Shown here: piece after piece, positions 10,901-55,585 of the stretch
Position numbering within the stretch: the first letter of the stretch is position 1
How the letters are laid out: the number at the start of each line of letters is the position of its first letter
Source: a virus
Lineage: Duplodnaviria > Caudoviricetes
IMG/VR virus record: IMGVR_UViG_3300009068_000043
Location: 1-60,691 of that record
Length of the DNA stretch: 60,691 nt
Direction: 5' to 3' (one strand)
Notes under the pieces: model-generated
Database searches by the model: none
The model's input: only the letters and a program-made list of their open reading frames with translations
What the model was told of the DNA's origin: nothing
Program-made: the position numbers and the translations under genes

Positions 10901-13900
10901 TTCAACTGGGCCATCATCTCCTGCTACCCAACTCTTACGGAAATCATTGCGGTTAAAATTACCTACCACAACTTGTTGTGGACTTAACAATGTGCCTTCA
11001 CTATCTACTGGTATCACTTGTAATAGTTCAGGACGCACATACTCAGGTCGCACATATGGTGCCACTGGATCTCTCACTAGGCCGGCTGCTAGATCTCCCC
11101 ACAGCACCAAGTTGCCACTGGTATACGGAGCAGCACCGTACTGTGTTTCCCACCAAATTGGCCGCTCACTGAATCCCAACAATTCCCAAGGCCGTGTGGC
11201 TGGATAGATAGTATCATAAAAGTAATTGTATATGCCGCGCCAGGCGCCGATAAACAGTGGATTTCTGGTGAGTTTGTTTGATGCTGTGCTGTAATTCCAT
11301 GTGAACTCGTTGGTTGCAATGTAATCTTGTGTTTTGTAATCTAGCTTGTTCCAGCCCACCCAGGTCAAGAAGTCCTGGTTCAGGATATTTTGAATTTCTG
11401 TTAGACTGTAATCTGTGGTGCGGAATTCACCCGGGATAACTTCAGCAGAAGTCAGCGGAACAGGATTGCCATCCAGTTTCAGATTGTTGTAAATTCTTGT
11501 TTCAAATTCCAACAACAATGCATCACGGAAATCACTGAATGCTCTGGTAATAGATCCATCATGCCCACGTATCACAAAGGTGGGTGTTACATAAGTTTCA
11601 TCTAAAAATATCTCAGGTACATACGCTGGGTACAATCCCATTTTGGTAGGAGTGTTGGGAACATAACTACCAAACGTGGCTTCGTATTCTTGAATGGTTA
11701 CCACATCACCCACTGCCACTGGTATTAGAATAGTAATAACAGGTGCATCAGCACTGACAACGTATTCTATATTTTTTGTCAGCAATCGATCATTGAGGTA
11801 TACCAACAATGCTTGATAATTTGCTGAAGTGTAATTGTATACTTGTGTAAGATCAAATACCTGTCCAGTGATAGGTGTGACCGTGGTCTGTAACTGTGTG
11901 TATACAGTACCAGTAGGCAACATGTCAGACCAGTAGAACGGATTTGAACTTGTACGCCCTATGTTGATTTCAGAAAATACTGCATCAAGAATAGCCGGCA
12001 CAGTCATATCAGTGTAGTCACCTTGGGCTGCTGTGTTCAAGAACTGTGCTTTGAATTTTTCGTATTCTCTTGAGTTGTATTCCAACGAAGCAAAAATATC
12101 ATAATCAGGTTTGCGTAAGAAATACCCAGCCAATGTCATTGGAGAGCTTTGTTGTAAAATGCTCAGGCCGTACGGTACAATGTTACCAAGATCTCTGGTG
12201 TTGTTGGCACCATTCACTGCTCCAGTCAAATTCACTAGATTTTGTGCAATGGTGTCATAATGTGTTCGGACAGTACCCAATGTAAAGTATGGGTTATTGC
12301 CATTCAATGGATTGTTTTCTAAGTTGATTGGAACTTGATAGAACCCAACAGCACTTACTTGATCACTGAGTACCAACACTTCAACTATATCACCGAGCAA
12401 TATTTCTGTTGTGGGATAAAATCTAATAATTGTGGTGTTGTCTGTTGTGGTAACTGTGTACTTGCCTGGATCCAGGAATAAGATACTGTAATTTTGAGAG
12501 ATACTGGTAGCGTACACCTTGACACTGGGCACTGCTCCTGTTGGTAAGGCTGCTACATCCAACACCAATGGAGTGGTTGCTGTGATAATTTCTGACAGCA
12601 CAGTTTGTTCCGGGGTGATAGTATATGTCCCCACTCCGCCTGTGCCAGTAAGTAATCCTGTAATTTGTGTGCCTGGTGTCACTCCTTTTCCAGCAAGGCT
12701 TTGCCCTATCAACAGTGATCCATTGGCTGGGCCTTGACTCACTGTCATTGTTGTGCCCGAGATAGAAGCTGTTATAGGTGTGGTAGTGTATGTAAAACTA
12801 AATTGTTGATAAACTTGACTCTTGGTCACTGCTGGTTGCCAGCCAAGTTCGTTCACATACACAGTGCGATTTTCATATTGGCGAACATGACCTATGCTGA
12901 TATTTTCAGTTTGCTGTACATTATCTTTGACATAGATAAATGTATCCACATACAAATTATTATCAAATACAATATCACCTATGTTGTTCAAACTGAGATA
13001 ACGTAATGGGAATCCCAACACTGTGTCTGCTACTGTGCCTGGGCCAACGGCATAGCTGAACAATGGACTACCGCCCACTATGGTACCAAGATTGTTTTTG
13101 GTAGTTGAGAAAGTTGAGCTTGGATATACAGCACGATCGCCTAGACTGTAGCCTTTTTGATTGTATACATCAAACATGGGATTTTGATTAACGGCTGTTT
13201 TACGTTGCGCTTGAATCCACTGTACACCGTCGTAGTAGAAACTAGCACCTTGAAGTGTGTTACCATTTAAACAAACCACACATTGATCTATCAGAGCCTG
13301 TGCGTCATCTGCAGGCACAAGATCAATAACCGGTTGTGGGTAATGCAATGTACTGTCATGCAATTCATCAGATGCAGGACTGATAAAGTTCACCACATAA
13401 ATTTTATCACGCACTTGTGGGTCCGTATCTCGTGCAAAAATAACTCTGTCACCTTGTTGTAGCTCGTACGCCGGAACCCCCTGCTCGAAGACATAGTATT
13501 GGGTTTGTCCATTGACCTCTGATAATGCGTCAGTTTGATAGAGATCAATTATGTTTATTGGCTGTTTGGCTTTGGTACCCATGTTGTACAAACGTGTTCC
13601 GCCACGGAACTCCACGATGGGTCTTTTTGCACGGAAGTTGTTGTTTAATACCGCAGTTGTGTTATTGTAGGTAGCGGCTGCTGTTATCACGTCAATATGG
13701 AACCAACGATTTGATCTGGTCCAGGCATTGAGATCAGGGCTATCCAGTGCTATGGTAATATAGTCAGGATCCAGTGGTTGATTAAGTGTTCCGTCCCAGT
13801 TGCTGGAATCCCAAGGAACAAAATCCCAAGGTATGCTGGCAGTACGTACACTTTCTGGTGTGACATAATCACTCACTAACAAAAGTTGTATTGCAGTGCC

Positions 13901-15229
13901 TACCCCGGCCACAAAGTAGGTCTGGCCCTGATAGCTGGTGGGAACAACATTACCTTCAAATGTGATCTGTAAGTTGTTGGTAAACACTACTCCGTTGGGA
14001 GAAGTATAAGTTTTCTTGCCAAGAATTTCAGTATCCACATTGATAGTTTCAGACAGAGTCTGATCTACCAATCTAATTTGCCCAAAAATATCTGGATTGG
14101 TACCATCTTGATACCATAACAGATCTTGAGTTGCAGTCAACAATGGTATTTGTTCAAAATATCCTGATGCGTTGAGATACCATTGTGTTGTGCTGTATTC
14201 AGTACCAAACATGATAGTAAACTTGTTTAGACTTGATACTGATAATACTGGTAATAATTGTATAGTTTGCCCTGCCCCAGTGGTCACATATTGTATTTGA
14301 TATATGTCAGTGGGAGCTGTGGTATTGTCAAATACAACAGTGCGATTCTGAAGATTAGTTATACCATCTATGCCAGTTGGATAGTTGGCAAAAAATGTTG
14401 ATACTAGAACATTGTTAATTTGATTGTAATCAATGTTGGTGATCAGATCAACTTGGCCAGCGGTGGGAGTAGTTGGAACCAGTGCGAGATTGTAATAGAA
14501 TTGTTGTGCATTTTTATAAGGTACACTAAAAGTAACAGTGCCCGATACAGTTCCGTTGTTGGTTACTCCCAGCACAGTTCTGGAACTGATGTTGGGTGCA
14601 TATGGCAATCTTCCATTCACACCAGGATCTGACTGTATCCAAAAAGCATTAGGTGATTGATTGACTGCAAACTCATAGGTGCCGCCACGCACCAGTGTGA
14701 GTACAGGATTCTCTCCGCCAATGCCAGAGAATTCATAACTGCTATTTGTTCTAGTGACATCAAATGTGGCTGTGGTTGGAATAGCAGTAGCACTTACTCC
14801 CACCTCCTGAGGACCACCAGGCAACCAATAATATTGACTGTAATTTGTAAACTTATCAAAGTTAATAAAAGGATCCCAAGTGTAATAATCACTGGTATAC
14901 AATCTTGAAGAATTATTAGTGAAACCGCCCTGGCGACCAATGGCATCAGTGATACCAGGATATGTCACGGCATCAGAAATGGTATTGGTATCAGGCACCA
15001 GGCTGATCACCCCTGGCTCTAGTTGATAGTTTGATCGTGTGGCAGTGGGTTCAATTACATAGTAATCGTTGGGATTTACTCCAGGGCCCACATGCCGACC
15101 AATAAATCCTTGTGTTTTTTTGAACTGGGGTTCCTGGACCAGTTGATCCAATGTGGCTGATAAAAACTGCTTGTTAGTGCTGGTCTGGAATATTGGTGGT
15201 AGAAAATCTACCGACTTTGTTGTGGCCAT
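1955..15229 (-). CDS. Giant (4424 aa) baseplate / virion structural protein with FG-GAP-like propeller repeats
   Basis: Single long ORF coupled to the gp6-like gene by a TAATG overlap at 15229. Contains repeated FG(Y/Q/A)S...VG(A/S)P motifs, three copies of a T(A)SIS..TMTV...G.G.GTY domain and W.P...Y..G..V motifs. Occupies the gp7-like position after gp6. Confidence 0.75.
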
Positions 15230-27378: not shown

Positions 27379-28278
27379 ATGGCAATCATTACAAGAGCAA
27401 CACCAAAGACTAACTATTTAAATAATCGCGATATTCTCAAGGAAATCCACCTTAGTAAGAAAAATTACTGTGCTTTTAGAGATCCTGTGCTGGATCATCA
27501 ATACGATATCATTCTCCCATCAACAAGCAAAATCAATCAAAAATCCACAGCTGAAGCACGTAGAAATCGAGCAGATCGCATCAAACGTGAAACTGGTGAG
27601 ATCATTGATCCTAAAAAAATCCCCAACACAGACGTGGTCTTTCGCATCATGACCTGGGAACACATACCCATGGCACCAAAAAAGATCACCAAGGCAGCAG
27701 CTAAAAAGCGCAAACTAGAAGAGCTGTTGGAACTGGATGAGCCTGCGGAAGATGATCCGCTAGCAGGATTGATCGACGAACCCATGCTGGATCCCACACA
27801 CATGCGGGTTAATTTTCCTCCATTCTTTCACTATCGTGTGGATGAAAACAAAGAGCCGTATCTAGTGGGCAAGAGTCATTGGCGTGGTGATTTGGAAACT
27901 GGAGAGTTTTCAAAAGATCATGGCGAGATGACTCGAACGCTGGCTCGGATGTTTATGAAACTTTGTGAACGCTATGCCACAAGATCTAACTGGAGAGGAT
28001 ACACCTACAATGAAGAAATGCGCGGACAAGCATTGTTGCAACTCAGCCAAATTGGACTGCAATTTGACGAATCAAAATCGCAGAACCCTTTTGCGTATTA
28101 TACTGCCGCTATCACTAATAGTTTTACTCGCATCCTGAATATTGAAAAAAAGATGCAGAACATCCGCGATGACATCCTGGAGATGAACGGGTTGAATCCT
28201 TCGTGGACTCGACAAAATTCCGGCAAACACAGCATGGAAGCCATGTCCGGTCCGGTTGTGAGCTCGTTTGAAGAGTAG
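27379..28278 (+). CDS. gp55: Late transcription sigma factor, T4 gp55-like
   Basis: YLNNRDIL...LCERYATRSNWRGYTYNEEM...FDESKSQNPFAYYTAAITNSFTRILNIEKK; synteny with gp47/gp46. Confidence 0.9.
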   Translation: MAIITRATPKTNYLNNRDILKEIHLSKKNYCAFRDPVLDHQYDIILPSTSKINQKSTAEARRNRADRIKRETGEIIDPKKIPNTDVVFRIMTWEHIPMAPKKITKAAAKKRKLEELLELDEPAEDDPLAGLIDEPMLDPTHMRVNFPPFFHYRVDENKEPYLVGKSHWRGDLETGEFSKDHGEMTRTLARMFMKLCERYATRSNWRGYTYNEEMRGQALLQLSQIGLQFDESKSQNPFAYYTAAITNSFTRILNIEKKMQNIRDDILEMNGLNPSWTRQNSGKHSMEAMSGPVVSSFEE

Positions 28279-28279
28279 T

Positions 28280-28327
28280 TTCAAAAAAGCAGCAATCTTC
28301 ATTAACATGCATTTTGGTCTTGACAAC
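28280..28327 (+). pseudogene. Degenerate duplicate of the gp47 5' end
   Basis: Reads FKKAAIFINMHFGLDN versus gp47 FRKAAIFTDIHFGLKS; 31 of 42 nt identical by manual count. Confidence 0.7.
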
Positions 28328-28329
28328 AT

Positions 28330-29835
28330 ATGAAAAATATAAGTCCAGGAGAATTAGAATCACACCTCTCTAAGAAATTTAAAGTTCTCAAATTTATAGA
28401 TTTAGCCACAATTGCAGAATCCCCTAGTGAGGCATTTCTGTTGTTTGATCAATTGGCCAAACCTGAATTCAGCCCCGATGAACGTATAGTATTTTATACC
28501 GGCCATGCTGTTGGGCCACGAGCATTGACTTTTCTACAGTATGCTGCTGATGTTTTTGACATCAGTCGATGTTTTGTGTTAGTATGTTGCCCTGTGCCAC
28601 TATCAATTAAAAATCAATACGATATAGAATTTTTTAAGATCTTGGTCGAATCTCATCCATTGGACGATAATCAGGTAATTGATGTCAATACCATGTGTTC
28701 AATGCCATTTTTTAATTTGGAATTTATGAACGACAGCAGTGTCAAACACTGTTGTTTTATACAAGATCAAATTGGATTTGCTGCCGGCTCTGCCGACATG
28801 CACAATCTATTCAATTCAGAAAAATCTACAAAATTAAGAAAACAGTTACTATCAGGCCAACGTCCCGGCGAATGCAATATTTGTTGGAAAAATGAATTTC
28901 AAGGGCTGGGTAGTTTACGACAGTGGCGTAACAAGTTACATAAAAAAGAATTTTTAACCAATTGGATTGATCAGCCCCAGATCAAAAGCATTAGTTTACA
29001 TCCTAGTATCGTGTGTAATTTCAAGTGTAGGATCTGTGGACCATATTCCAGCAGCCTCTGGGTAGACGAAGAATTAAAATATGAAACTGACTTGGCTCGA
29101 CGCGAAAAAATCGTTTACTCTATTGATCAATCCAGGTGGTTTGAGCAAGATTCTCCTGCAGTCACGGGCATTATTGATCTGTGTAGCGAAGTAAAGTATA
29201 TTGATATCTATGGTGGGGAACCACTTCTGCTAAAACAGTTTAGAACCCTATTGCAAAAAAGCATCGAAAGTGGCGCATCTAACACCCAACGATTACATTT
29301 TAATACCAATGTATCTAAGTTTCCGGCCGATCTAATTGAAATGATGCATCATTTTAAAGAGGTGGCTATTTCTTTAAGCATTGACAATATTGGCAAGCAA
29401 TTTGAACTAGAACGGGGCGGAGACTGGAACAATATTGAATATCATGTTGATCAATTTTTGTCCCTGGATCCGGCAATTTTTAAAGTGTCAACTCTAACTA
29501 CTGTGAGCAATCTTAATCTCTTATACCTTGATCAATTAGTTAATTGGGCAGATTCTAAAAATTTAGATCTAACATTTAATATGTTACATTATCCTGAATA
29601 TTTACAATTTGATCGTGTTACCTCACAAATCCGAGACCTAGCGGTTAAACAGTACCAATATCATCCAAACAGTTATCTCAAAAATATTGCACAGAGTTTG
29701 ATAAACAAAGCCCCCGCCGATGTAACCGAATGGGTAGAAAAAATGCAACAGATGGATTATCGTAGAAATCAAAGTATTTTGATAACACATCCAGAACTGG
29801 CCAAGGGCATGGGCTATACAAACAATACCAAATAA
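28330..29835 (+). CDS. Radical SAM protein with twitch/SPASM-like Cys motifs
   Basis: CNFKCRIC (CxxxCxxC), YGGEPLL, NTN, SIDN; upstream C..P...CC and C..CW Cys cluster. Confidence 0.85.
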   Translation: MKNISPGELESHLSKKFKVLKFIDLATIAESPSEAFLLFDQLAKPEFSPDERIVFYTGHAVGPRALTFLQYAADVFDISRCFVLVCCPVPLSIKNQYDIEFFKILVESHPLDDNQVIDVNTMCSMPFFNLEFMNDSSVKHCCFIQDQIGFAAGSADMHNLFNSEKSTKLRKQLLSGQRPGECNICWKNEFQGLGSLRQWRNKLHKKEFLTNWIDQPQIKSISLHPSIVCNFKCRICGPYSSSLWVDEELKYETDLARREKIVYSIDQSRWFEQDSPAVTGIIDLCSEVKYIDIYGGEPLLLKQFRTLLQKSIESGASNTQRLHFNTNVSKFPADLIEMMHHFKEVAISLSIDNIGKQFELERGGDWNNIEYHVDQFLSLDPAIFKVSTLTTVSNLNLLYLDQLVNWADSKNLDLTFNMLHYPEYLQFDRVTSQIRDLAVKQYQYHPNSYLKNIAQSLINKAPADVTEWVEKMQQMDYRRNQSILITHPELAKGMGYTNNTK

Positions 29836-29836
29836 C

Positions 29837-29865
29837 TTGCATTCTGTTATAAAATATAGTATCAT
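29837..29865 (+). promoter_or_regulatory. Sigma70-type promoter for the gp47 operon (leaderless)
   Basis: TTGCAT, 17 nt, TATCAT; the ATG at 29872 sits at the expected +1 with no Shine-Dalgarno. Confidence 0.6.
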
Positions 29866-29871
29866 GTACCT

Positions 29872-30888
29872 ATGACCAATCTATTCCGCAAAGCAGCTAT
29901 CTTCACAGACATCCATTTTGGCTTAAAAAGCAATAGTGTCACTCACAACGAAGACTGCTTGAACTTTGTAAAGTGGGCTACTACAAAAGCAAAAGAACAA
30001 GGTTGTGAGACCTGTATGTTCCTGGGCGATTGGCATAACAATAGAGCCAGTCTTAACATTGTAACATTAAACTACAGCTTGCGGGCGCTGGAGCATATGA
30101 ATAACAATTTCAGCCAGGTATATTTTATTCCAGGCAATCACGATTTATATTATCGCGACAAACGTGATATCCAAAGTGTTGAATGGGCTAAACATTTACC
30201 CAATGTTGAAATCTGTAATGATTGGGTCACCGTCGGTGATGTTGTGATTGCTCCTTGGCTTGTAGGGGATGACTATAAACGTATACCCAAGCTGAAGGGC
30301 AAATACATGTTTGGGCATTTTGAATTGCCCGGCTATCTCATGAATGCCATGGTTGAAATGCCCGATCACGGTGAAGTACGACGAGAAGACTTCAACAACT
30401 TTGAACATGTATTCACAGGTCACTTTCACAAACGACAAACCAAAAAGAACATCACTTATATTGGCAATTGTTTTCCGCACAATTATGCTGATGCCGGCGA
30501 CGATGACCGTGGGCTTACTATTTTAGAATGGGGTCGGGATCCTGTGTATCATGCCTGGCCCGATCAACCTCGATATCGTGTGCTAGGGCTGGCCAATATC
30601 ATCGACAATGCAGCCGCATTGCTTGCACCTAAAATGCATGTTCGTGTAAACTTAGACATTGAGATTTCATACGAAGAAGCTAACTTTATCAAAGAAACAT
30701 ATATCCGAGATTACAATTTGAGAGAGATGGCATTGATACCCAACAAAAATTCATCAGTGGATACTGATATGGCTCCCGGCGAAGTCAAATTTGAATCAGT
30801 GGATCAGATTGTAACAGATCAAATAACCAATATCGAATCAGAGTTTTACGACAACCGACTGCTGTTGAAAATATATCAAAATCTATGA
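29872..30888 (+). CDS. gp47: Recombination endonuclease subunit, Mre11/SbcD-like
   Basis: Metallophosphoesterase motifs DIHFG, GD, GNHD, GH and GHFH. Confidence 0.92.
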   Translation: MTNLFRKAAIFTDIHFGLKSNSVTHNEDCLNFVKWATTKAKEQGCETCMFLGDWHNNRASLNIVTLNYSLRALEHMNNNFSQVYFIPGNHDLYYRDKRDIQSVEWAKHLPNVEICNDWVTVGDVVIAPWLVGDDYKRIPKLKGKYMFGHFELPGYLMNAMVEMPDHGEVRREDFNNFEHVFTGHFHKRQTKKNITYIGNCFPHNYADAGDDDRGLTILEWGRDPVYHAWPDQPRYRVLGLANIIDNAAALLAPKMHVRVNLDIEISYEEANFIKETYIRDYNLREMALIPNKNSSVDTDMAPGEVKFESVDQIVTDQITNIESEFYDNRLLLKIYQNL

Positions 30889-32645
30889 TCCATCTACGTG
30901 ATATTACAGTAAAAAACTTTATGAGTGTGGGTAATACCACGCAGGCCATTGACTTTGATCGTAGTGATCTCACACTGGTGCTAGGTGAAAACTTAGACAT
31001 GGGCGGTGATGGCTCTCGCAATGGTACAGGCAAAACCACAATCATCAATGCACTAAGCTATGCATTGTATGGTCAAGCCTTATCAAACATCCGCAAAGAT
31101 AATCTTGTGAACAAGACCAATGCCAAACACATGCTTGTGAGTTTGGACTTTAGTGTCAGCGGGCAGAACTATCGAATTGAACGTGGACGTAAACCCAACA
31201 TTTTAAAATTTTACGTAAATCAAGAAGACAAAAGTTCTGACGATGCTCAAGGCGATTCAAGAGAAACACAAGATGCCATTGAACGTGTGTTGGGAATGAG
31301 TCATGACATGTTTCAACATATCGTTGCACTAAACACATATACTCCGCCGTTCTTGAGTTTGAAGGCCAATGAACAACGCACTATCATCGAACAACTGTTG
31401 GGTATCACACTGTTGAGTGAACGTGCCGATCGTATCAAAGAGCTTAACAAAGCCACCAAAGATTCTATTCAGTCAGAAGAACTACGAATCCGAGCAGTTC
31501 AAGAAGCCAACAAACGAATTGAAGAGCAAATTCAAAGTTTGGAAAAACGTCGCACATTGTGGCTACGTAAACAAACTGAAGATGTGGCTGCATTAACACA
31601 AGGCATCGGTGATCTTGAGCACATTGACATCGAGGCGGAAGTCCAATCACACAGAAATCTTGAGGCATATCATGTGCGTAAGAAAACAGCAGACGATGCA
31701 AATCGGTGGATCAAACAAATCAATGCTGACGACGTAAAATTACAAAAACAATTTGATCAGACCAAGAAAGATCTGAATCAAATTGCCAGTCACAAATGTT
31801 TTGCATGTGGTACAGAGATACACGACAACAGTCTAGATACTGTGAAAGCACAGCGTGAAAAAACTCTGCAAGAATTGGCATTGCAATTGTTGACCAATGA
31901 TACACAACGCATGGAACATCAAGATCGATTATTGAAACTTGATGAGTTAGGCACGGCACCTACAGTTTTTTATGACAACTTAGAACAAGCATTGAATCAC
32001 AAAAATACTGTGAATACCTTACGCAAGGACCTTGCAGCAAGATCATCCGATGCCGATCCGTATGCTGAACAAATTGCAGACATGCAACACCAAGCATTGC
32101 AAGTGGTAAGTTACGATACCCTAAACGAATTTACCAGGGTACAAGAACATCAAGAATTCTTGTTAAAGTTATTGACCAGCAAGGACAGTTTTGTTCGTAA
32201 GAAGATCATTGACCAAAACTTGAGTTATCTCAATGCAAGACTCACATACTATCTTGATCGCATTGGATTACCACATACTGTAAAGTTTCAAAACGATTTA
32301 ACTGTTAGTATTGAAGAGTTGGGGCGTGAATTGGATTTTGATAACTTATCTCGTGGTGAGCGTAATCGACTTATCTTAAGCATGAGCTGGGCATTTAGAG
32401 ATGTGTGGGAAAGTTTATATCGTCCTATCAACATTTTATTTATTGACGAGATGATTGATTCGGGACTTGACACACAAGGTGTAGAGAATGCACTGGCATT
32501 GCTGAAAAAGATGAGTCGAGAACGACAAAAATCAATCTGGTTAGTCAGTCATAGAGATGAATTGACCAGCAGGGTAGAGAATATTCTTAGGGTGGTTAAA
32601 GAGAATGGATTTACCAGTTATAGCACGGACATTGACCTTGCGTGA
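30885..32645 (+). CDS. gp46: Recombination ATPase, Rad50/SbcC-like
   Basis: KNFMS, Walker A NGTGKTT, coiled coil with CFAC zinc hook, LSRGE signature, Walker B ILFIDE, SH motif. Confidence 0.93.
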   Translation: MIHLRDITVKNFMSVGNTTQAIDFDRSDLTLVLGENLDMGGDGSRNGTGKTTIINALSYALYGQALSNIRKDNLVNKTNAKHMLVSLDFSVSGQNYRIERGRKPNILKFYVNQEDKSSDDAQGDSRETQDAIERVLGMSHDMFQHIVALNTYTPPFLSLKANEQRTIIEQLLGITLLSERADRIKELNKATKDSIQSEELRIRAVQEANKRIEEQIQSLEKRRTLWLRKQTEDVAALTQGIGDLEHIDIEAEVQSHRNLEAYHVRKKTADDANRWIKQINADDVKLQKQFDQTKKDLNQIASHKCFACGTEIHDNSLDTVKAQREKTLQELALQLLTNDTQRMEHQDRLLKLDELGTAPTVFYDNLEQALNHKNTVNTLRKDLAARSSDADPYAEQIADMQHQALQVVSYDTLNEFTRVQEHQEFLLKLLTSKDSFVRKKIIDQNLSYLNARLTYYLDRIGLPHTVKFQNDLTVSIEELGRELDFDNLSRGERNRLILSMSWAFRDVWESLYRPINILFIDEMIDSGLDTQGVENALALLKKMSRERQKSIWLVSHRDELTSRVENILRVVKENGFTSYSTDIDLA

Positions 32646-33501
32646 TATAAAAGTCTTACACCTGGAGCCCACAGATGTATGCCAAGCAGCATGCCCTTTG
32701 TGTGCAAGAGAAACTGACAAAAATTTTCGTAAAGATCGTCAGCACCACCTTGACATGTACAAACTAATGCAAGCGTTTGATGCTGATAAAATTGCCAAAT
32801 TAGACAAAATGTTCATGTGCGGCAACTATGGAGATCCTGCTGCTGGCAAGTACACACTGAACATCTATCGTGAATTTAGAAAACTCAACAAAAAAATTGT
32901 GCTAGGCATGAATACCAATGGAGGATTGCAAAATGCTCTATGGTGGAATGAATTAGGACGTATATTTCATCAACCTCAAGACTATGTTGTATTCAGCATA
33001 GATGGGCTTGAAGGCACCAACCATGTTTACAGAAAAAATGTTACCTGGTTGCGAATAATGCAAAACGCACAGTCTTTTATACAAGCAGGAGGATCTGCAC
33101 ACTGGGACATGTTGGTGTACCGGCATAATCAACATCAAGTTGATGAGTGTAAGCAACTTGCTCAATCTATGGGATTTAAATGGTTTCGTGCTAAAGTTAG
33201 TAAACGTGGATTTACAAACAAATTAGAACAACCAATTGGATGGGGTATTCCGTCTATGGTATCCACCACAATTGATTGTCATGCTATTAAAGAGCAAAGC
33301 ACTTATATAGATGCACAAGGAAATATAAGTCCATGCTGCTGGCTTGGTGCAAGACAACAAGATTTTGTTAGAGATTTTACTCAAATACAAAACTCTTGGA
33401 CTAGTTTGCAACCTAATATTGTATGTGTGGATACCTGCGGATCCAAAGATGGCGGATCCAATTTTAGCAATCAATGGCAAAGAGAGGTTGAACTTGTTTG
33501 A
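32605..33501 (+). CDS. Radical SAM protein with C-terminal SPASM/twitch-like domain (start may be slightly downstream)
   Basis: CQAACPLC, CGNYGDP, NTNGG, FSIDG; C-terminal C...IDAQGNISPCC...C..TC. Confidence 0.85.
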   Translation: MDLPVIARTLTLRDIKVLHLEPTDVCQAACPLCARETDKNFRKDRQHHLDMYKLMQAFDADKIAKLDKMFMCGNYGDPAAGKYTLNIYREFRKLNKKIVLGMNTNGGLQNALWWNELGRIFHQPQDYVVFSIDGLEGTNHVYRKNVTWLRIMQNAQSFIQAGGSAHWDMLVYRHNQHQVDECKQLAQSMGFKWFRAKVSKRGFTNKLEQPIGWGIPSMVSTTIDCHAIKEQSTYIDAQGNISPCCWLGARQQDFVRDFTQIQNSWTSLQPNIVCVDTCGSKDGGSNFSNQWQREVELV

Positions 33502-34597
33502 TTTTTCTGTGATTGATGAGTATCAAATTGAAATAACCACATACTGTAATGCGGCCTGTCCACAGTGCCCGAGAAATGATCTTGGTCACGGTATCAATCC
33601 TTACATGCCATTGACCCATCTTGATCGTGTGGTAATTGATCGTGCATTTGATACAGAACTTTGCACACGGTTACGACAAATATTCTTCTGCGGCAGTTAT
33701 GGCGATCCTATCATGCATCCTGATTTTCTGGGCATCTTGCGAGATTTTCGCAGCAAGAATCCCTCACTATGGTTGTATATGCATACCAATGGGGGTGTGC
33801 ATGACCCAGAGTATTGGACAGAGATAGCCCGGATCATGAATGGATATGGACAAATAGATTTTGGAATAGACGGCCTTGAAGATACCTTACATCTATATCG
33901 TAAAAATGTAAAATACAATCAAGTCATAGCCAATGCACAAGCATTCATCAATGCCGGTGGTCGTGCGCAGTGGAACTACATAGTGTTCCAACATAACCAA
34001 CATCAAGTTGAGCAAGCTAAAGAACTAGCAGCTAGCATGAAGTTCCACAACATTCTGATACGTAAGACTGGTAGATTTCTCAATCATGCCTTGATGGAAG
34101 AGATGCAAACATGGCCTATTAAAAACAGTGATCGTGTGTTAGCACCGTCCGACCATCCAGAATATCGCAATGCAAGCATGATGTTTCTGCCCAACTTAAA
34201 AAAACAATATGCATCAGTTAAGGATTATTTTGATACCACCCCAATACGGTGTGATGCTATGATGGGACGCAAAGTAGCTATTAATGCTGAGGGTGTGGTA
34301 TTGCCTTGCAATTTTTTCAATCACAACCTGTATGATGCTAGATTCAGAGACGGCAGTTTGCCTGGTGCCAATCCATTAAGCCAACACAATGGACGCAATC
34401 AGATCACAGACTTTTTGTCAAGATATGGCTTAGATAATCTCAATCTACACAATAACTCATTAGAGGGTGTGTTTGAGAATCCCATGTGGTCGGATCTAGT
34501 AGAGAGCTGGAACAATGAACATAGATTGTTTGAATGTGCAATGACCTGTGGTAGTAAATTTACAAAAGTATGGGATCAAGGAGGATCCAAAATATGA
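33494..34597 (+). CDS. Radical SAM protein with SPASM/twitch-like domain, paralog of upstream gene
   Basis: Likely TTG start at 33494 after GAGG; CNAACPQC, CGSYGDP, HTNGG, FGIDGLE; C...INAEGVVLPC...CAMTC. Confidence 0.85.
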   Translation: MFDFSVIDEYQIEITTYCNAACPQCPRNDLGHGINPYMPLTHLDRVVIDRAFDTELCTRLRQIFFCGSYGDPIMHPDFLGILRDFRSKNPSLWLYMHTNGGVHDPEYWTEIARIMNGYGQIDFGIDGLEDTLHLYRKNVKYNQVIANAQAFINAGGRAQWNYIVFQHNQHQVEQAKELAASMKFHNILIRKTGRFLNHALMEEMQTWPIKNSDRVLAPSDHPEYRNASMMFLPNLKKQYASVKDYFDTTPIRCDAMMGRKVAINAEGVVLPCNFFNHNLYDARFRDGSLPGANPLSQHNGRNQITDFLSRYGLDNLNLHNNSLEGVFENPMWSDLVESWNNEHRLFECAMTCGSKFTKVWDQGGSKI

Positions 34598-35178
34598 AAA
34601 TGTTAGTAACCGGCGGTAATAGAGGATTAGGACAGCATCTTGTGGAACAATTTGGTGCAACAAGCATGAGCCGTGCTACAGGAATTGATATTACAAAAGA
34701 TCATCAAAACATTGCTCTAATGAGTTTAGAGTATGATGTGTTTGTGAACAATGCATTTGATGGGCCTCCACAAGAGCCGTGGGCAAATTTTGGACAGACC
34801 CAGGTGTACATGGCAGTATACGATGCATGGCAAGCAGACGGAAAATCTGGATGGATTTTTAACATCGGATCTGTGGGGGAGCAAAGCATAGTGGCACCTG
34901 AACCCAGATGGGAAACATATAGAATTAGCAAGGCAGCATTAAGTCACGCCAGCAGGCAAGGCACTCAGGCATTTAAACAAGATCAAGTGAAATTTCGAAC
35001 AACTTTACTCACATTAGATAGACTAGATACGGAACTTAGCCGTAGTAGACCCACATGGACTGGTAACGGGCAGGCTTTGCATGACATCAGTGACTTTATC
35101 AAGTATACTGTAAATGTCAATGCAAATACCGTGATAGAACAGGCAACTTTTTACATCAACTTTGACTTTAAGGCATAA
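34594..35178 (+). CDS. Short-chain dehydrogenase/reductase (SDR)
   Basis: ATG at 34594 (ATGA overlap, GGAGG upstream); TGGNRGLG Rossmann motif, NNA, catalytic S and YRISK (YxxxK). Confidence 0.85.
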   Translation: MKMLVTGGNRGLGQHLVEQFGATSMSRATGIDITKDHQNIALMSLEYDVFVNNAFDGPPQEPWANFGQTQVYMAVYDAWQADGKSGWIFNIGSVGEQSIVAPEPRWETYRISKAALSHASRQGTQAFKQDQVKFRTTLLTLDRLDTELSRSRPTWTGNGQALHDISDFIKYTVNVNANTVIEQATFYINFDFKA

Positions 35179-35204
35179 CTATATGACACAAGTAATACAG
35201 CAAC

Positions 35205-35633
35205 ATGACATGGCTATATCAAAACACCCCAGTGGAGACATTGCCCGAAACATGTGTGGGATTTGTTTACTTGATCACAAATAATCTATCTGGACGCAAA
35301 TACATAGGCAAAAAACTAGCCAAGTTCTCAAAAACAACTTACCGAACAGTCAAACAAAAAAACGGCATCAAAAAGCGGAAAAAGATACACAGCAAAATCG
35401 ATAGCGATTGGCAAGAGTATTATGGGTCAAGCTCAGAATTATCCGCAGACATCCAAAAACTAGGCACCGACAATTTTACCAGAGAAATACTTTACTACTG
35501 TAACAGTAAAAGTGAATGTTCATACGTTGAAGCACGGGAACAGTTCAGTAGACAAGTATTAGAGTCACAAGATTATTACAACGGCCAGATATCTGTAAGG
35601 GTACATGGTCGGCAAATTCTAAACAAAATTTAA
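35205..35633 (+). CDS. Stand-alone GIY-YIG nuclease domain protein
   Basis: GFVYLITN..GRKYIGKK, YYGSS, FTREIL, E and YYN motifs; 142 aa with no C-terminal NUMOD DNA-binding domain. Confidence 0.8.
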   Translation: MTWLYQNTPVETLPETCVGFVYLITNNLSGRKYIGKKLAKFSKTTYRTVKQKNGIKKRKKIHSKIDSDWQEYYGSSSELSADIQKLGTDNFTREILYYCNSKSECSYVEAREQFSRQVLESQDYYNGQISVRVHGRQILNKI

Positions 35634-35639
35634 CAGGCA

Positions 35640-36050
35640 ACTAAACGACTCTGTGTTGAGTGTTTGACTCAACCCCATTGAGGAACGGTGCGATACCCGG
35701 TCTGGACTTGGGCGTCAAAGGCAATTGCTAACTAAAGGCAACAAATGGTTTGGGCTCTGTGAAATAGATACACCCCATGCTCATAGGACTTGGATTTATT
35801 ATCGGGTCACTAGGGTTCCGTTGATATGTGAAGCTAGAGTAAGGGGTACCGGTCAACCGCCTCTGTGTTGGAAACAACAATCTCTTTATAATAAATGACT
35901 GCTGTCACTCAGATGATGCATCAATTCACCGTGCATACGGTGAATTATGACCACAGTATCTAGATGATACTAAGTCAAGCAAACAAAGAAAACAAAAAAA
36001 CATTGATGAGCGCAGCGATATCAATAGACTTGCGTAGCAAGTCTCTAAAC
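35640..36050 (+). ncRNA. Candidate large structured non-coding element (about 400 nt; strand inferred)
   Basis: Largest intergenic gap in the window, with at least 8 hairpins including TGTTG-GAAA-CAACA and AATTCACCGT-GCAT-ACGGTGAATT, plus long-range complementarity ATTTATTAT/ATAATAAAT. Confidence 0.55.
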
Positions 36051-36070
36051 AAATGAACGTTTCTGTTTTA

Positions 36071-36307
36071 CTAAAAGAAAGGGAGGCCCGATTTTTTTGT
36101 TGTCTCTAAATTGTCTTTGATTAACTCATTGATAATTTCACGCTCTTGTACACCTAGAGCCATGGCTTGATCATAAGTTAGTCCACCTCGCATGAACCAA
36201 CTCATCTTGATAGCCTCCTGGCGTATGTTTTGACAATCTTTGTCCATATTGTCGACCAAGGTGCCGATCTCTTCTACACTAGAGGTCAGGAGGCGTCGAC
36301 GAAAAAA
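36071..36307 (-). CDS. Small gp51/GT-like chaperone ORF, probably expressed as a -1 frameshift extension of the gp26-like gene
   Basis: Frame is open from the T-TTT-TTC heptamer (36301-36307) to the stop at 36071: FRRRLLTSSVEEIGTLVDNMDKD...SWFMRGGLTYDQAMAL..ERE...GLPFF; no obvious Shine-Dalgarno for an independent start. Confidence 0.6.
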   Translation of the reverse strand, partial: FFRRRLLTSSVEEIGTLVDNMDKDCQNIRQEAIKMSWFMRGGLTYDQAMALGVQEREIINELIKDNLETTKKSGLPFF

Positions 36308-37122
36308 CTTGATAGATCCAGTGTAAACGGTTGTGTATACTGATGGCTACATTCTTTACACACAAGATTTAACGGTTGTACATCACTTTTTTGTTTTAAT
36401 GTAATAACGTAGTCTCTTAATTTATTGAATATCTTGCTGTCACAATTGCGTAGATAGTCTATGATAAATTCAGTTTCAGTTACCATTGCTTGTGGAGTTT
36501 TGATAGCTGCAATACTTTGGGCAATGGTTCTTAACGTAGTTTCATTGACCAACATCATGCTACGATTTAACTGTTCTAATTTTATTTTTTCTTCTGCATC
36601 ACTATTGAGCACCCGCATGGCTTGTTGTTGCTCCATCTGCATTTGATTGTTGTCATTTACAAACTTGTATGGAATAGGTTGGAACCAAAATTCTAAATCT
36701 CCGATATTCATGGAACTATCATAATCTCCAATCTTCAATCCGTCATTGACTGCACGTAAATCAACACTGATCAACTCGTCAACACTGCATGCTGGACAGG
36801 TCACATCAAGATCCATGGCATGCCCGTAGCTGGCAATACGTATGGCCACTAACACAGCGTCAATGTCGGTTGCTGGCATGGCCCATGGATCTCTTATGCT
36901 AGGAACACAGCTTTTGATCACATTTACAGTGGCTGTGCCGTTGAATAGTGCATCTGGAGTTCGATAAGTGATTTCGTCCACACTGGTCATGGGCAACACT
37001 GGTAATTCTCCATTGGGCGGCAAAGTAAGGGTGCCTGGCGGATAAAATTTACCTTTGGATGGCAGTCGGAGATAGATCGCTGGTTGGCGAAAATATTGTG
37101 TTAATGGGTTGTTTGGTAGCAT
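36286..37122 (-). CDS. gp26: Baseplate hub assembly chaperone, T4 gp26-like
   Basis: YLRLPSKG.FY, PMT..DE, DIDAVLVAIRIASYG, two CxxC pairs (CPAC, CKEC) and C-terminal LDLSSFF; GAGGA Shine-Dalgarno. Confidence 0.75.
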   Translation of the reverse strand: MLPNNPLTQYFRQPAIYLRLPSKGKFYPPGTLTLPPNGELPVLPMTSVDEITYRTPDALFNGTATVNVIKSCVPSIRDPWAMPATDIDAVLVAIRIASYGHAMDLDVTCPACSVDELISVDLRAVNDGLKIGDYDSSMNIGDLEFWFQPIPYKFVNDNNQMQMEQQQAMRVLNSDAEEKIKLEQLNRSMMLVNETTLRTIAQSIAAIKTPQAMVTETEFIIDYLRNCDSKIFNKLRDYVITLKQKSDVQPLNLVCKECSHQYTQPFTLDLSSFFVDAS

Positions 37123-45400: not shown

Positions 45401-46150
45401 ATGAAACCTTATACATATCTAATCAAACATCGACCTTCCGGCAAAGTCTACTATGGATACCGTTCGGCTAACCGAGTAGATCCTGTAGACGATCTGTGGA
45501 AATACTATTTCACAAGTAGTCCGGGTGTTCAGAAACTAATAGAAGAAACAGGCGTAGACAGTTTTGATACAGAAGTACGCCGGGTATTTGAGACAAAAGA
45601 GCAAGCAAGCGACTGGGAAACAAGAGTTCTTAGTCGTTGTAAAGTATTAAAAGATGATCGTTGGCTCAATCAAAATGTAGCGGGATACATAGTTCCTACA
45701 GAAGAAAGTCGAAAAAAGATTAGTGATTACCACAAAGACAAACCCAAGAGCGAAGAACATAAACAAAATTTAAGCGACTCACAAAAAGGTAGCAAGCGTC
45801 CGTGGTCTAAGCAAAATCTACCAAAAGACAACAAAGGTAAAAATAATGGCATGTATGGAAAGTCTCATTCAGAAGAGTCTAAGAAAAAAATTGGAGAAAA
45901 AAATAGAATACACATGCAAGGTGATAACAATCCAATGAAAAAAGTAGAGTGGACAGAAGAACGCAAAGAACATATGCGACAGATTCGTGCTAAAAGACAA
46001 CCTTGGACAGAAGAACAAAAAAAAGCAGTAGCTCAGAAGTTAACCGGACTAAAGCGACCAAAACTCTACTGTGCTCACTGTGACAGACACATAGCTCAAG
46101 GCTGGTTTCACAGACACGGTGATCACTGCTCAAGCATAAATACCCTGTAA
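45401..46150 (+). mobile_element. Free-standing Seg-like GIY-YIG homing endonuclease with NUMOD3 repeats
   Basis: YTYLIKH..GKVYYG..YFTSS..E..WLN nuclease domain; repeats such as EESRKKIS, KSEEHKQNLS and NGMYGKSHSEESKKKI; C-terminal CAHC...H..HC. Confidence 0.85.
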
Positions 46151-54757: not shown

Positions 54758-55585
54758 ATGGGTCGTCCATTAAAAATACAAAAATACAGTTTAAATACTG
54801 GCATCAATAGCCCTGGCGATGATGTACCAGTGGATCTTGCCTATCCACCATTCAGCGCACTTGATGTGCCTGTTTACAATGCACCTGTACAGACATTGAA
54901 TGCAGCGCAGTTCTTGGGTGTGGTCGGTGGATCACCAACTACCAGCCAACCTAGTGCCACATACCCCGAAGTAGCAGCACTGGTAAACATTCTATTAGCA
55001 GATGGTACTACTACTGAGGCTATTGCTAATCAATACACCGGTCGTATCATACGCCAAAAAGGTAGCCACAAATATCTAGTTGCATACACATATGCAACTA
55101 CCGCTGATACAGGTTTCATTGTTGGTCAAGCATATCAGATTGCTGTTCTTGGAACAACCAACTGGCAATCAGTGGGCACCGGCACAGGCACAGTGGCACC
55201 TGGTGATATTTTCACTGCCACAGCATCCGATGGTGGTGGCAACGGAACTGCATACCCAGTTGGCGTGTGCGTGTTGACCAATGATACCACACCAGGTGCG
55301 GGTCTCATGGCAATTGGTTACGAATCTGGTGACAGTGCAGCAGCCACAGCCAGTAACCTTAAAAACAAGTGGGTGCGCGACTGGACTGGAACTACTGGAG
55401 ACTATAGCGATGCCAACCTTGGCGAAGTTACTTACACCAGCGAATTTTACTATGTTGCCAACTTCTTCACAGACGAAGGTGGAGTTGCTCAGTCTGGATT
55501 GGATGTGGCTACTGCTACAGAATCAGTTGCTGCGGCACCAGATGGCTATGTGCCACTGGCAGTTATCAACAACGTTACTTCTTAA
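54758..55585 (+). CDS. Probable virion structural protein
   Basis: MGRPLK start, IIRQKGSHKYLV, and a FIVGQAYQI..LGTTNW..VG...GDIFTAT domain; strong Shine-Dalgarno and late promoter. Confidence 0.6.
   Translation: MGRPLKIQKYSLNTGINSPGDDVPVDLAYPPFSALDVPVYNAPVQTLNAAQFLGVVGGSPTTSQPSATYPEVAALVNILLADGTTTEAIANQYTGRIIRQKGSHKYLVAYTYATTADTGFIVGQAYQIAVLGTTNWQSVGTGTGTVAPGDIFTATASDGGGNGTAYPVGVCVLTNDTTPGAGLMAIGYESGDSAAATASNLKNKWVRDWTGTTGDYSDANLGEVTYTSEFYYVANFFTDEGGVAQSGLDVATATESVAAAPDGYVPLAVINNVTS

Follow-up and report, generated by a model that had tools for sequence, protein, structure and literature searches.

Introduction

In the OMEGA systems a compact nuclease is paired with a structured RNA, IscB with an omega RNA and TnpB with an reRNA. 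GOLLD and ROOL are large ornate RNAs without an assigned function (10.1101/2024.12.08.627333). They measure 500-800 nucleotides (nt), are highly structured and partly phage-borne, and are not known to have a dedicated protein partner. A further RNA to be considered is Polynucleobacter-1 (Rfam RF01718), which originates from the survey of Weinberg et al. (2010; PMC2864571), the only literature naming this RNA that came up in our searches. Here we describe a 60,691-base stretch of an IMG/VR virus record (hereafter the window), in which the gene of a stand-alone GIY-YIG nuclease is followed on the same (+) strand by a structured non-coding RNA at 35645-35975, possibly extending through two hairpins that end at 36043.

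The locus resembles the OMEGA systems in that a structured RNA lies 3' of a compact nuclease gene on the same strand. In contrast to these systems, no guide segment was seen when the alignment of the RNA was read, transposon ends are lacking, and the nuclease family is widespread without the RNA, can be replaced by a protein of another fold and does not co-vary with two short repeated words of the RNA, termed boxes in the following. With GOLLD and ROOL the RNA shares being large, highly structured, partly phage-borne and without a known dedicated protein partner, but it gives no sequence or model match to either and measures about 330-400 nt. The likeness to Polynucleobacter-1 concerns the genomic slot, a GGUACCGGNCAACCGCCUC core, a GUUGN pseudoknot partner and a twin-box domain, all present in RF01718-bearing loci; the Rfam family itself, however, covers only 141 positions and omits the core, the pseudoknots and the boxes. 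Our literature searches gave nothing specific on structured phage RNAs linked to GIY-YIG nucleases and no published description of the extended twin-box RNA family.

Results and Discussion

Comparative Evidence for a Structured Non-coding RNA

The gap between the nuclease gene and the next gene comprises 437 bases (35634-36070) and contains only open reading frames (ORFs) of ≤57 amino acids (aa), none of which is conserved among homologues, in agreement with a first-pass annotation of the window that had seen no credible ORF after the GIY-YIG stop codon. Decayed or hidden coding sequence, such as a DNA-binding half that a Seg-type enzyme has lost or a small gene on the minus strand, might nevertheless occupy the gap, and the best minus-strand frame has a widely varying stop-free run of 25-77 aa among the twelve commonest lengths, being open to this extent in 69/75 homologues. 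However, variable sites were distributed 18/15/19 over the three codon phases, thus without periodicity, and net length differences relative to the window were mostly not multiples of 3 (e.g., -1 in 25/74 and -4 in 10/74 sequences). Moreover, the 142-aa nuclease is full length in nearly all of its best 80 relatives, and compensatory base-pair changes are found along the whole stretch. Coding sequence is in practice ruled out, and we consider its probability to be close to nil.

Folding of the single sequence showed a mild excess over shuffled sequences (z = -2.14 for the + strand and -2.39 for the - strand); as this is weak evidence, the question has to be decided by comparison with relatives. 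A covariance-model search against Rfam, as suggested in the first-pass annotation, was empty at the RNA locus, with the gathering threshold as well as with E relaxed to 10; freshwater-2 was the sole match in the window, and ARAGORN found no tRNA or tmRNA genes in the window. At the DNA level, blastn of 35100-36200 against 50,697 cultured-phage records gave no match. With blastn of the gap, a partial match was obtained in 65/80 of the best GIY-YIG loci. In these relatives gap positions 1-340 are mostly 75-96% identical, starting right after the stop codon, and positions 367-418 form a separate block. A scan with a pattern of the RNA core detected at least 120 stretches, 80 of which were listed as loci and are the basis of all linkage counts given below, and 102 distinct homologues could be aligned to the window at 61-99% identity (median 84%).

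Mutual information, RNAalifold and visual inspection were combined into a structure numbered by the window, which was then counted on 75 distinct sequences (alignment A2). The positions of the model pair in 91.8% of 6318 cells, as compared to 84.9% in shuffled alignments, none of which reached the observed value (0/500), and to 32-47% when the partners were slid. Changes on both sides were observed in 43 of the 87 pairs, and compensatory cells numbered 484, against 124.5 +/- 14 in shuffled and 29-78 in slid controls, showing that the fold is real. Cells with G-U (561) exceeded those with A-C (103), indicating that the folded strand is the + strand, the same as that of the nuclease gene. The near-complete genomes G001 and G002 carry one copy of the RNA each. 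Among 185,579 species genomes, the core pattern matched only two contigs of 148 and 183 kb from a Haliscomenobacter metagenome-assembled genome (L202 and L203), each with one full copy of the RNA at 88-89% identity to the window; the two may represent prophage-like DNA, or else phage DNA that was binned together with a potential host.

Fold of the RNA

The RNA is modular and consists of a subtype-specific 5' domain of nested helices, a near-invariant, doubly pseudoknotted core and a 3' twin-box domain that is common to all subtypes found in the slot (Table 1).

Table 1. Coordinates of the nuclease gene and of the elements of the RNA in the window; type B denotes RNAs of the kind found in the window, and pairing values refer to the 75 aligned sequences.
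Feature	Position	Strand	Observation
GIY-YIG nuclease gene, stand-alone, 142 aa, SegE-type catalytic domain only	35205..35633	+	PF19835, phrog_447; upstream neighbor of the RNA, partnership with the RNA not demonstrated
5' domain	35645..35716	+	Closing helix Pa encloses hairpin H1 and helix Pc; Pc encloses hairpin H2
Pa	35647-49/35714-16	+	100% of cells paired; both-sided change in 2/3 pairs
H1, GTTGAGT/ACTCAAC	35655-61/35667-73	+	Both-sided change in 6/7 pairs
Pc	35674-77/35709-12	+	100% paired; both-sided change in 3/4 pairs
H2, conserved loop UGMGAUAC	35683-88/35697-702	+	Both-sided change in 5/6 pairs
H3 hairpin, conserved loop AACU(U/A)AA	35725..35741	+	95.5% paired; both-sided change in 4/5 pairs
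Pg hairpin, loop GAAAWAGAU	Outer 35751-54/35774-77, inner 35758-60/35770-72	+	99.7% and 97.2% paired; both-sided change in 5/7 pairs
Ph hairpin	35789-93/35802-06 (35789..35806)	+	100% paired; 8-nt loop
PK1 pseudoknot, Ph loop with downstream strand	35794-801/35889-96	+	95% paired; both-sided change in 5/8 pairs
Near-invariant stretch UYACUAGGGUUCCGUUGAUAUGUGAAGCU	35807..35835	+	Alignment
PK2 candidate pseudoknot, GUUGA/UCAAC	35820-24/35853-57	+	Five pairs invariant in 75/75 type-B sequences
Three-way junction of Px, Py and Pz	35836..35885	+	
Px	35836-39/35882-85	+	Pair 35836/35885: UA in 40, AU in 35 sequences
Py, capped by CGG-UCAA-CCG	35842-46/35860-64	+	Pair 35842/35864: GC in 60, AU in 15 sequences
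Pz, GAAA loop	35866-70/35875-79	+	Compensatory changes at 3 pairs
Twin-box domain	35897..35975	+	RUGAC-N-ACUC-box 1 (35911-17), linker, central hairpin, UU-AUGAC-N-AUCU-box 2 (35962-68)
Central hairpin	35923-32/35937-46	+	8 invariant and 2 varying outer pairs; stem change compensated between subtypes
A-rich linker	35977-36001		Precedes T1 and T2
T1 hairpin, loop GAGCGCAGCGAU	36002-07/36020-25		Loop motif conserved
T2 hairpin	36027-33/36037-43		Simple hairpin 3' of T1

Several pairings that the first-pass annotation had read from the single sequence withstood the comparison. The stems GTTGAGT/ACTCAAC, AGGGG...CCTCT (with an inner CGG/CCG that is kept but hardly varies) and TGTTG-GAAA-CAACA (35866-79) are supported by covariation, the hairpin at 35923-46 is likewise supported, and the long-range pairing ATTTATTA/TAATAAAT was recovered as PK1, thus representing a pseudoknot with a hairpin loop. 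A proposed GGG/CCC arm holds in a shifted register, that of Pg, but not in the ATGG/CCAT register, which is paired in 80%. In contrast, TCTG/TAGA (59.5% of cells paired), GACTTGG/CTAAGTC (64.3%) and AGTATC/GATACT (64% of cells) found no support, and TCTG/TAGA, ATGG/CCAT and GACTTGG/CTAAGTC jointly gave a covariation score of 0.066 as compared to 0.067 in shuffled alignments.

Downstream of the twin-box domain, the T1 loop motif GA[GA][CT]G..[AG][CT]GA[AT] was present in 64 of the 105 distinct sequences with enough downstream DNA, and the T1 stem varies between sequences in a complementary fashion, as judged by eye. The T1 loop reads UGA-GCG-NNN-GCG-AA(A), with a small inner helix that co-varies by eye (GAGCG..GCGAA vs GAACG..GUGAA). 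This conservation exceeds the needs of a plain terminator. On the minus strand a U-run comes after T1, which may thus terminate the converging genes. Either the RNA ends with 35977-36043, or this segment is a two-way terminator.

Three RNA Types and Their Relation to RF01718

Behind orthologous GIY-YIG genes we found three types of 5'/core sequence, type A bearing RF01718, type B as in the window and type C, and in the same slot of near-complete genomes G001 and G002 carry type B, G004 type A and G005 type C. RF01718 matched 8/20 other loci with 94-120 bits, 9-50 nt past the stop codon of the orthologous GIY-YIG gene, and in these eight loci it represents the first third of a longer RNA. Past RF01718, type A continues with the GGUACCGGNCAACCGCCUC core, the GUUGN pseudoknot partner and a twin-box domain as in the window (5/5 aligned). 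In the same five relatives PK2 reads GUUGU/ACAAC, which amounts to one compensatory event. The core with its upstream GUUGN partner is thus shared by the window and type A and is absent from type C by reading.

RF01718 (gathering cut-off 37 bits) did not match the window even at E up to 10, nor did it match 16 divergent loci at gathering level. Conversely, a covariance model built from the window-type 5' domain (R1) found four divergent type-B loci with 79-127 bits but nothing at the RNA position of the eight RF01718 loci. Since the two models fail both ways, the 5' domain of the window is a different module. The first-pass annotation had proposed an undescribed phage RNA; the RNA is real and its window version matches no Rfam family, but it is not wholly undescribed, since sister RNAs in the same slot begin with RF01718.

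Type C was observed in L003 (3440-3900), L041 (3690-4140), L064 (3700-4000) and L032 (about 1879), in each case behind the orthologous GIY-YIG gene. It has a core of its own, a central hairpin GGAACCG...CGGUUCC and ACAUGAA twin boxes, and no Rfam family matched it in the three loci scanned (L003, L032 and L041). The nuclease gene and the RNA are separated by a small ORF in L041 and L064.

Twin Boxes

The 3' domain of the window reads AUGAC-N9-UC-AGAUGAU, linker, central hairpin, UU-AUGAC-N7-UCU-AGAUGAU, the boxes being the two 7-nt words AGAUGAU. The strongest non-complementary signals of mutual information in the alignment connect equivalent box positions, namely 35911/35962 and 35915/35966. 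Box 1 equals box 2 in 77/77 distinct sequences, a count that left out four sequences not fitting the search expression, and six variants were found (AGATGAT 27, GGATAAT 19, AGATAAT 17, GGATGAT 9, AGATGAA 3 and AGACGAA 2). By eye, the boxes also match in 23/23 sequences with other central hairpins, which add the variants GGATGAG, GGATGAA and AGATCAA, in 5/5 type-A sequences, and as ACATGAA in the type-C loci L003 and L041; four variants were thus seen by eye beyond the six counted, ten in all. As in the window, types A and C have two identical 7-nt boxes, each after YUGAC-N-AYYC/U, that flank one hairpin. All four combinations of A or G at position 1 with G or A at position 5 occur, indicating that shared ancestry alone is insufficient to account for box identity.

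No columns of the RNA other than the boxes themselves co-vary with the boxes by mutual information. RNAalifold, run on 34 sequences, predicted the central hairpin as the sole structure in the twin-box domain, and both boxes accordingly come out unpaired. Local stems such as UGAC/GUCA or UGC/GCA, which many sequences allow to be drawn by hand for the box units, were rejected, as their registers shift, the fixed columns pair in only 54.6% and 64%, and RNAalifold predicts none of them. The spacing of the boxes is 49-58 nt without preference for multiples of 3, and most frames contain stops; the idea of a never-ending ORF or rolling copy was therefore also rejected.

Identical boxes would be expected of an RNA that binds tRNA, in which each box would show an ANN codon at positions 3-5 (AUG, AUA, ACG or AUC) followed by an invariant A and both would have to match one tRNA. 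The box variants fit this pattern, and the H2 loop GGUGNGAUAC is T-loop-like, with a possible resemblance to T-box stem I. However, G002 has a tRNA-Ile(UAU) and yet AUG boxes, the box codon is not mirrored in the tRNA sets, and an element binding NCCA was not identified in the RNA. G001, G002 and G004 encode 27-30 tRNAs each, mostly clustered, for nearly all amino acids and with 2-3 CAU-anticodon genes, so any box codon would have a cognate tRNA, which counts against this explanation as well. We thus consider tRNA binding very improbable.

A ribozyme with a catalytic conserved core, which would cleave or ligate at the boxes as two equivalent sites on either side of the hairpin, would account for the invariant unpaired core, the two pseudoknots and the GNRA-type loops, and one active site would naturally take two identical sites as its substrates. 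Nevertheless, Rfam ribozyme and intron families gave no match even at E up to 10, core columns co-varying with the boxes were not found, and type-B core sequences are missing from types A and C, leaving catalysis with a slight chance only.

Association With the Nuclease

The 142-aa protein matches PF19835 (SegE_GIY-YIG) over residues 3-129 (E 2.5e-33, model positions 1-123 of 123) and no other domain, and no solved structure was found by sequence search at E up to 1. At least 595 relatives occur in viral contigs. Identity is 70-93% among the best 80, of which nearly all have the full length, showing that the protein is not a truncated Seg enzyme. The gene was found in 4/4 near-complete genomes (L006, L069, L015 and L064 in G001, G002, G004 and G005, respectively). 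This non-sporadic distribution and the lack of a second domain (NUMOD or similar) led us to reject the protein as a free-standing Seg-type homing endonuclease. The window does encode such an enzyme at 45401-46150 (+), a classical 249-aa protein with NUMOD3 and the same GIY-YIG domain that is distinct from the 142-aa protein; the first-pass annotation had correctly told the two apart by their NUMOD repeats.

The claim that the RNA is linked to the nuclease gene was borne out, as a GIY-YIG homologue lies upstream on the same strand in 68/80 loci found by the RNA pattern alone. In 56 of these 68 it lies within about 190 nt, and in the other 12 an insertion of 0.8-2 kb (one or two genes) separates the two. 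Among the remaining 12/80 loci, eight lack upstream sequence and four (L108, L115, L130 and L145) have a protein of ~168 aa instead, which is PF24608 (PDDEXK_15, a PD-(D/E)xK protein) in the two loci scanned and recognizably the same protein in the remaining two. In L115, L130 and L145 its end is 0-2 nt away from the RNA; in L108 a 326-aa minus-strand ORF lies between them. At the level of genomes, PDDEXK_15 occurred only in G007, the 18%-complete record holding L130, and the L130 locus is without a GIY-YIG gene, a statement that covers the locus and not the whole record, which was not searched for GIY-YIG. The RNA lies behind an orthologous small nuclease gene on the same strand in all types. 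Wherever upstream genes can be seen, the slot comes after genes judged by eye to be gp47/gp46-like, no family search having been made on them. The gene content of relatives between the gp46-like gene and the RNA varies by locus, resembling an accessory-gene island. Endonuclease VII (PF02945) was absent from 3/4 near-complete genomes searched.

Such a position might suggest that the RNA forms a ribonucleoprotein with the adjacent small nuclease, as its partner, guide or scaffold, the boxes addressing the enzyme to nucleic acid, and this had been the suggestion of the first-pass annotation. The RNA directly behind the gene in 56/68 linked loci is in line with it, as are the other small nuclease in the same place where GIY-YIG is missing, 0-2 nt from the RNA in 3/4 loci, and the basic insertion of the nuclease, which has no DNA-binding domain. 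However, a guide-like free hypervariable segment was not seen when the 75-sequence alignment was read, although no dedicated scan was run, and the visible variable stretches of the RNA are either helices with compensated changes or linkers that measure from a few nt to roughly a dozen. No GIY-YIG residue tracks the box variant, the best normalized mutual information being 0.41-0.48 as compared to the 77/77 agreement between the boxes. Three different RNA body types stand behind orthologous nucleases, the nuclease can be exchanged for a PD-(D/E)xK protein, and inserted genes separate nuclease and RNA in 12/68 loci. Moreover, the GIY-YIG family is present in 536 cultured-phage records at 36-48% identity, and downstream of the homologue there are 148 nt in Melnitz-3, 87 nt in S-SRM01 and an overlapping gene in P-HM1; R1 found nothing behind the gene in these phages, the gap being too short in 3/3 inspected. 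A partnership with the nuclease is thus not upheld, and we regard it as very doubtful.

Genomic Context and Expression

The source, an uncultured lake phage, is T4-like, as the minus-strand gene at 36286-37122 encodes a gp26-type baseplate hub protein (PF12322, phrog_150), and contigs related to the window reach 331-347 kb. The GIY-YIG gene ends a + strand gene block (27379-35633), and two minus-strand genes (36071-37122) follow 3' of the gene and the gap, placing the RNA locus at a convergent junction.

In geminivirus Rep origins, iterons adjoin an invariant origin hairpin, and phage T4 oriF/oriG and ColE1 RNA II are RNA-primed origins, T4 oriF being located at uvsY, beside genes 25, 26 and 51. 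Similarly to these, the boxes are short direct repeats, identical within a genome and differing between relatives, that stand beside a conserved hairpin and near a nuclease gene. We considered an origin-type element, the transcript of which would pair back on its own DNA as R-loop or primer, with the boxes as two RNA:DNA registers around the hairpin and the neighboring structure-specific nuclease processing the intermediate. The identity of direct repeats would suit strand transfer or re-annealing, the RNA is present in a single copy per genome, and the slot lies between genes assigned by eye as gp46/47-like recombination genes on one side and gp26/51-like hub genes on the other. In contrast to the known origins, however, the repeats of the RNA flank the hairpin, sit in a strongly structured RNA and do not track the nuclease, and base composition shows no origin signal, the GC skew having no turning point at the locus. 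The junction is convergent, not divergent, the box spacing varies, and a primer needs no heavily selected RNA tertiary structure with three interchangeable bodies. An origin at this site therefore appears unlikely.

Contigs from three RNA libraries, belonging to three studies, carry relatives of the nuclease gene and the RNA. One of them spans gene and RNA (35203-35733; X15 record 10), and a short one exactly matches 35870-36012 (X9 record 31). In runs X8 and X15 the cover ends near 35967, while it continues in X1, a probable DNA run; since the contigs of relatives continue with unlike sequence, this is not a call of a transcript end. The shares in the run search were small (0.06-0.10 of sampled words), and no habitat was indicated.

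The position directly after the last gene of the + strand block, the conserved hairpins that follow the RNA and the absence of an own promoter in a simple scan would all be expected if the RNA were the cis-acting 3' end of the operon mRNA, that is, a structured 3' untranslated region that would serve to stabilize, process or terminate the transcript without acting in trans. On the other hand, a doubly pseudoknotted fold of 330 nt with ~30 invariant unpaired bases and co-varying identical boxes far exceeds the needs of a stabilizer, and the RNA is retained despite genes inserted upstream of it; we find such a purely cis-acting role quite unlikely.

Proposed Function of the RNA

With moderate confidence we favor a stand-alone + strand RNA gene with a scaffold body and a two-handed reader of the boxes, the nuclease being a mere neighbor. 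The RNA gene would be ~330 nt long (35645-35975), or ~400 nt with the two downstream hairpins. It is located behind the GIY-YIG gene, the last gene of the rightward operon, at the 3' end of this operon. The RNA probably works on its own and not as a guide of the nuclease. Its folded body would serve as a scaffold holding out two unpaired copies of one 7-nt word beside a clamp hairpin, and a single two-handed partner, sequence-specific and changing in step with the two copies, would read both; candidates for this reader are two sites or copies of a nucleic acid pairing with the word, or a dimeric protein. The neighboring nuclease may be a housekeeping enzyme of the replication/recombination module, perhaps one that cuts junctions, which shares the operon and can be replaced by an analogue; the lack of endonuclease VII in 3/4 near-complete genomes, the restriction of PDDEXK_15 to G007 and the position of the slot after gp47/gp46-like genes are in line with this.

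Several observations weigh against this proposal. A complementary heptamer at a constant offset was not found in the loci, nor was an extended box complement found in five large contigs, in which the pattern ATYATCYRRRTR hit nothing but the boxes, scattered sites and a recurrent CACCCAGATRAT that is out of step with the box variant. In a narrow search across three whole genomes, nine of the 61 heptamer or complement sites of G001 had an aligned counterpart in the two others, and none of these nine tracks the box variant. Simple base pairing fits the box changes poorly, since these are mostly A/G and U/C, for which G-U wobble would tolerate a change in a single box, and none was seen. The adjacency to the nuclease is tight (56/68 within about 190 nt), and together with the recurrence of a nuclease in the slot after replacement of the fold this could mean a functional tie. 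Furthermore, the simple scan found no significant promoter or terminator for the RNA itself, and the evidence from RNA libraries consists of assembled contigs, which give no ends, strand or level and may include DNA.

A functional tie of another kind would be a self-addressed system, in which the exposed 7-nt word of the RNA pairs with the DNA of both boxes in its own locus and so marks a hairpin-centered site, to be nicked or resolved by the structure-specific slot nuclease (GIY-YIG or PD-(D/E)xK) at the start of replication or recombination. This would explain the identity of the boxes, why a nuclease of any fold is kept beside the RNA, and why the 5' bodies are exchangeable while the twin-box module is fixed, but we would give it little credence.

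Other Features of the Window

Directly upstream of the nuclease gene, 32605-35178 (+) encodes two radical-SAM proteins (298 and 417 aa, the former just under the Pfam cut-off) and a short-chain dehydrogenase-like protein. A TTTTTTC run stands at 36307-36301 (-), just ahead of the stop codon of the gp26-like gene, and a 62-aa ORF (36071-36259) lies in the -1 frame by coordinates. The minus strand contains one ORF of 4424 aa (1955-15229), and the freshwater-2 RNA (RF02980; 54676-54760, +) is full-length (68.3 bits) and ends at the ATG of the ORF at 54758-55585.

Implications

The present locus indicates that the mere proximity of a small nuclease and a structured RNA does not suffice to infer an RNA-guided enzyme. 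RF01718, a Rfam orphan since 2010, would be only one of several exchangeable front parts in a longer RNA of modular build. In every sequence examined, over ten variants, the two direct repeats change in concert, which is unlike an ordinary signature of base pairing and points to a partner reading the same word twice, or to a copying step. If our proposal of a stand-alone RNA with a two-handed box reader is true, the RNA would be among the larger and more intricate phage RNAs without known function. It occurs widely among uncultured T4-like giant phages of freshwater, with genomes of 330-347 kb. Finding the reader of its boxes could uncover a novel mode of RNA-based recognition that serves phage replication, regulation or counter-defence.

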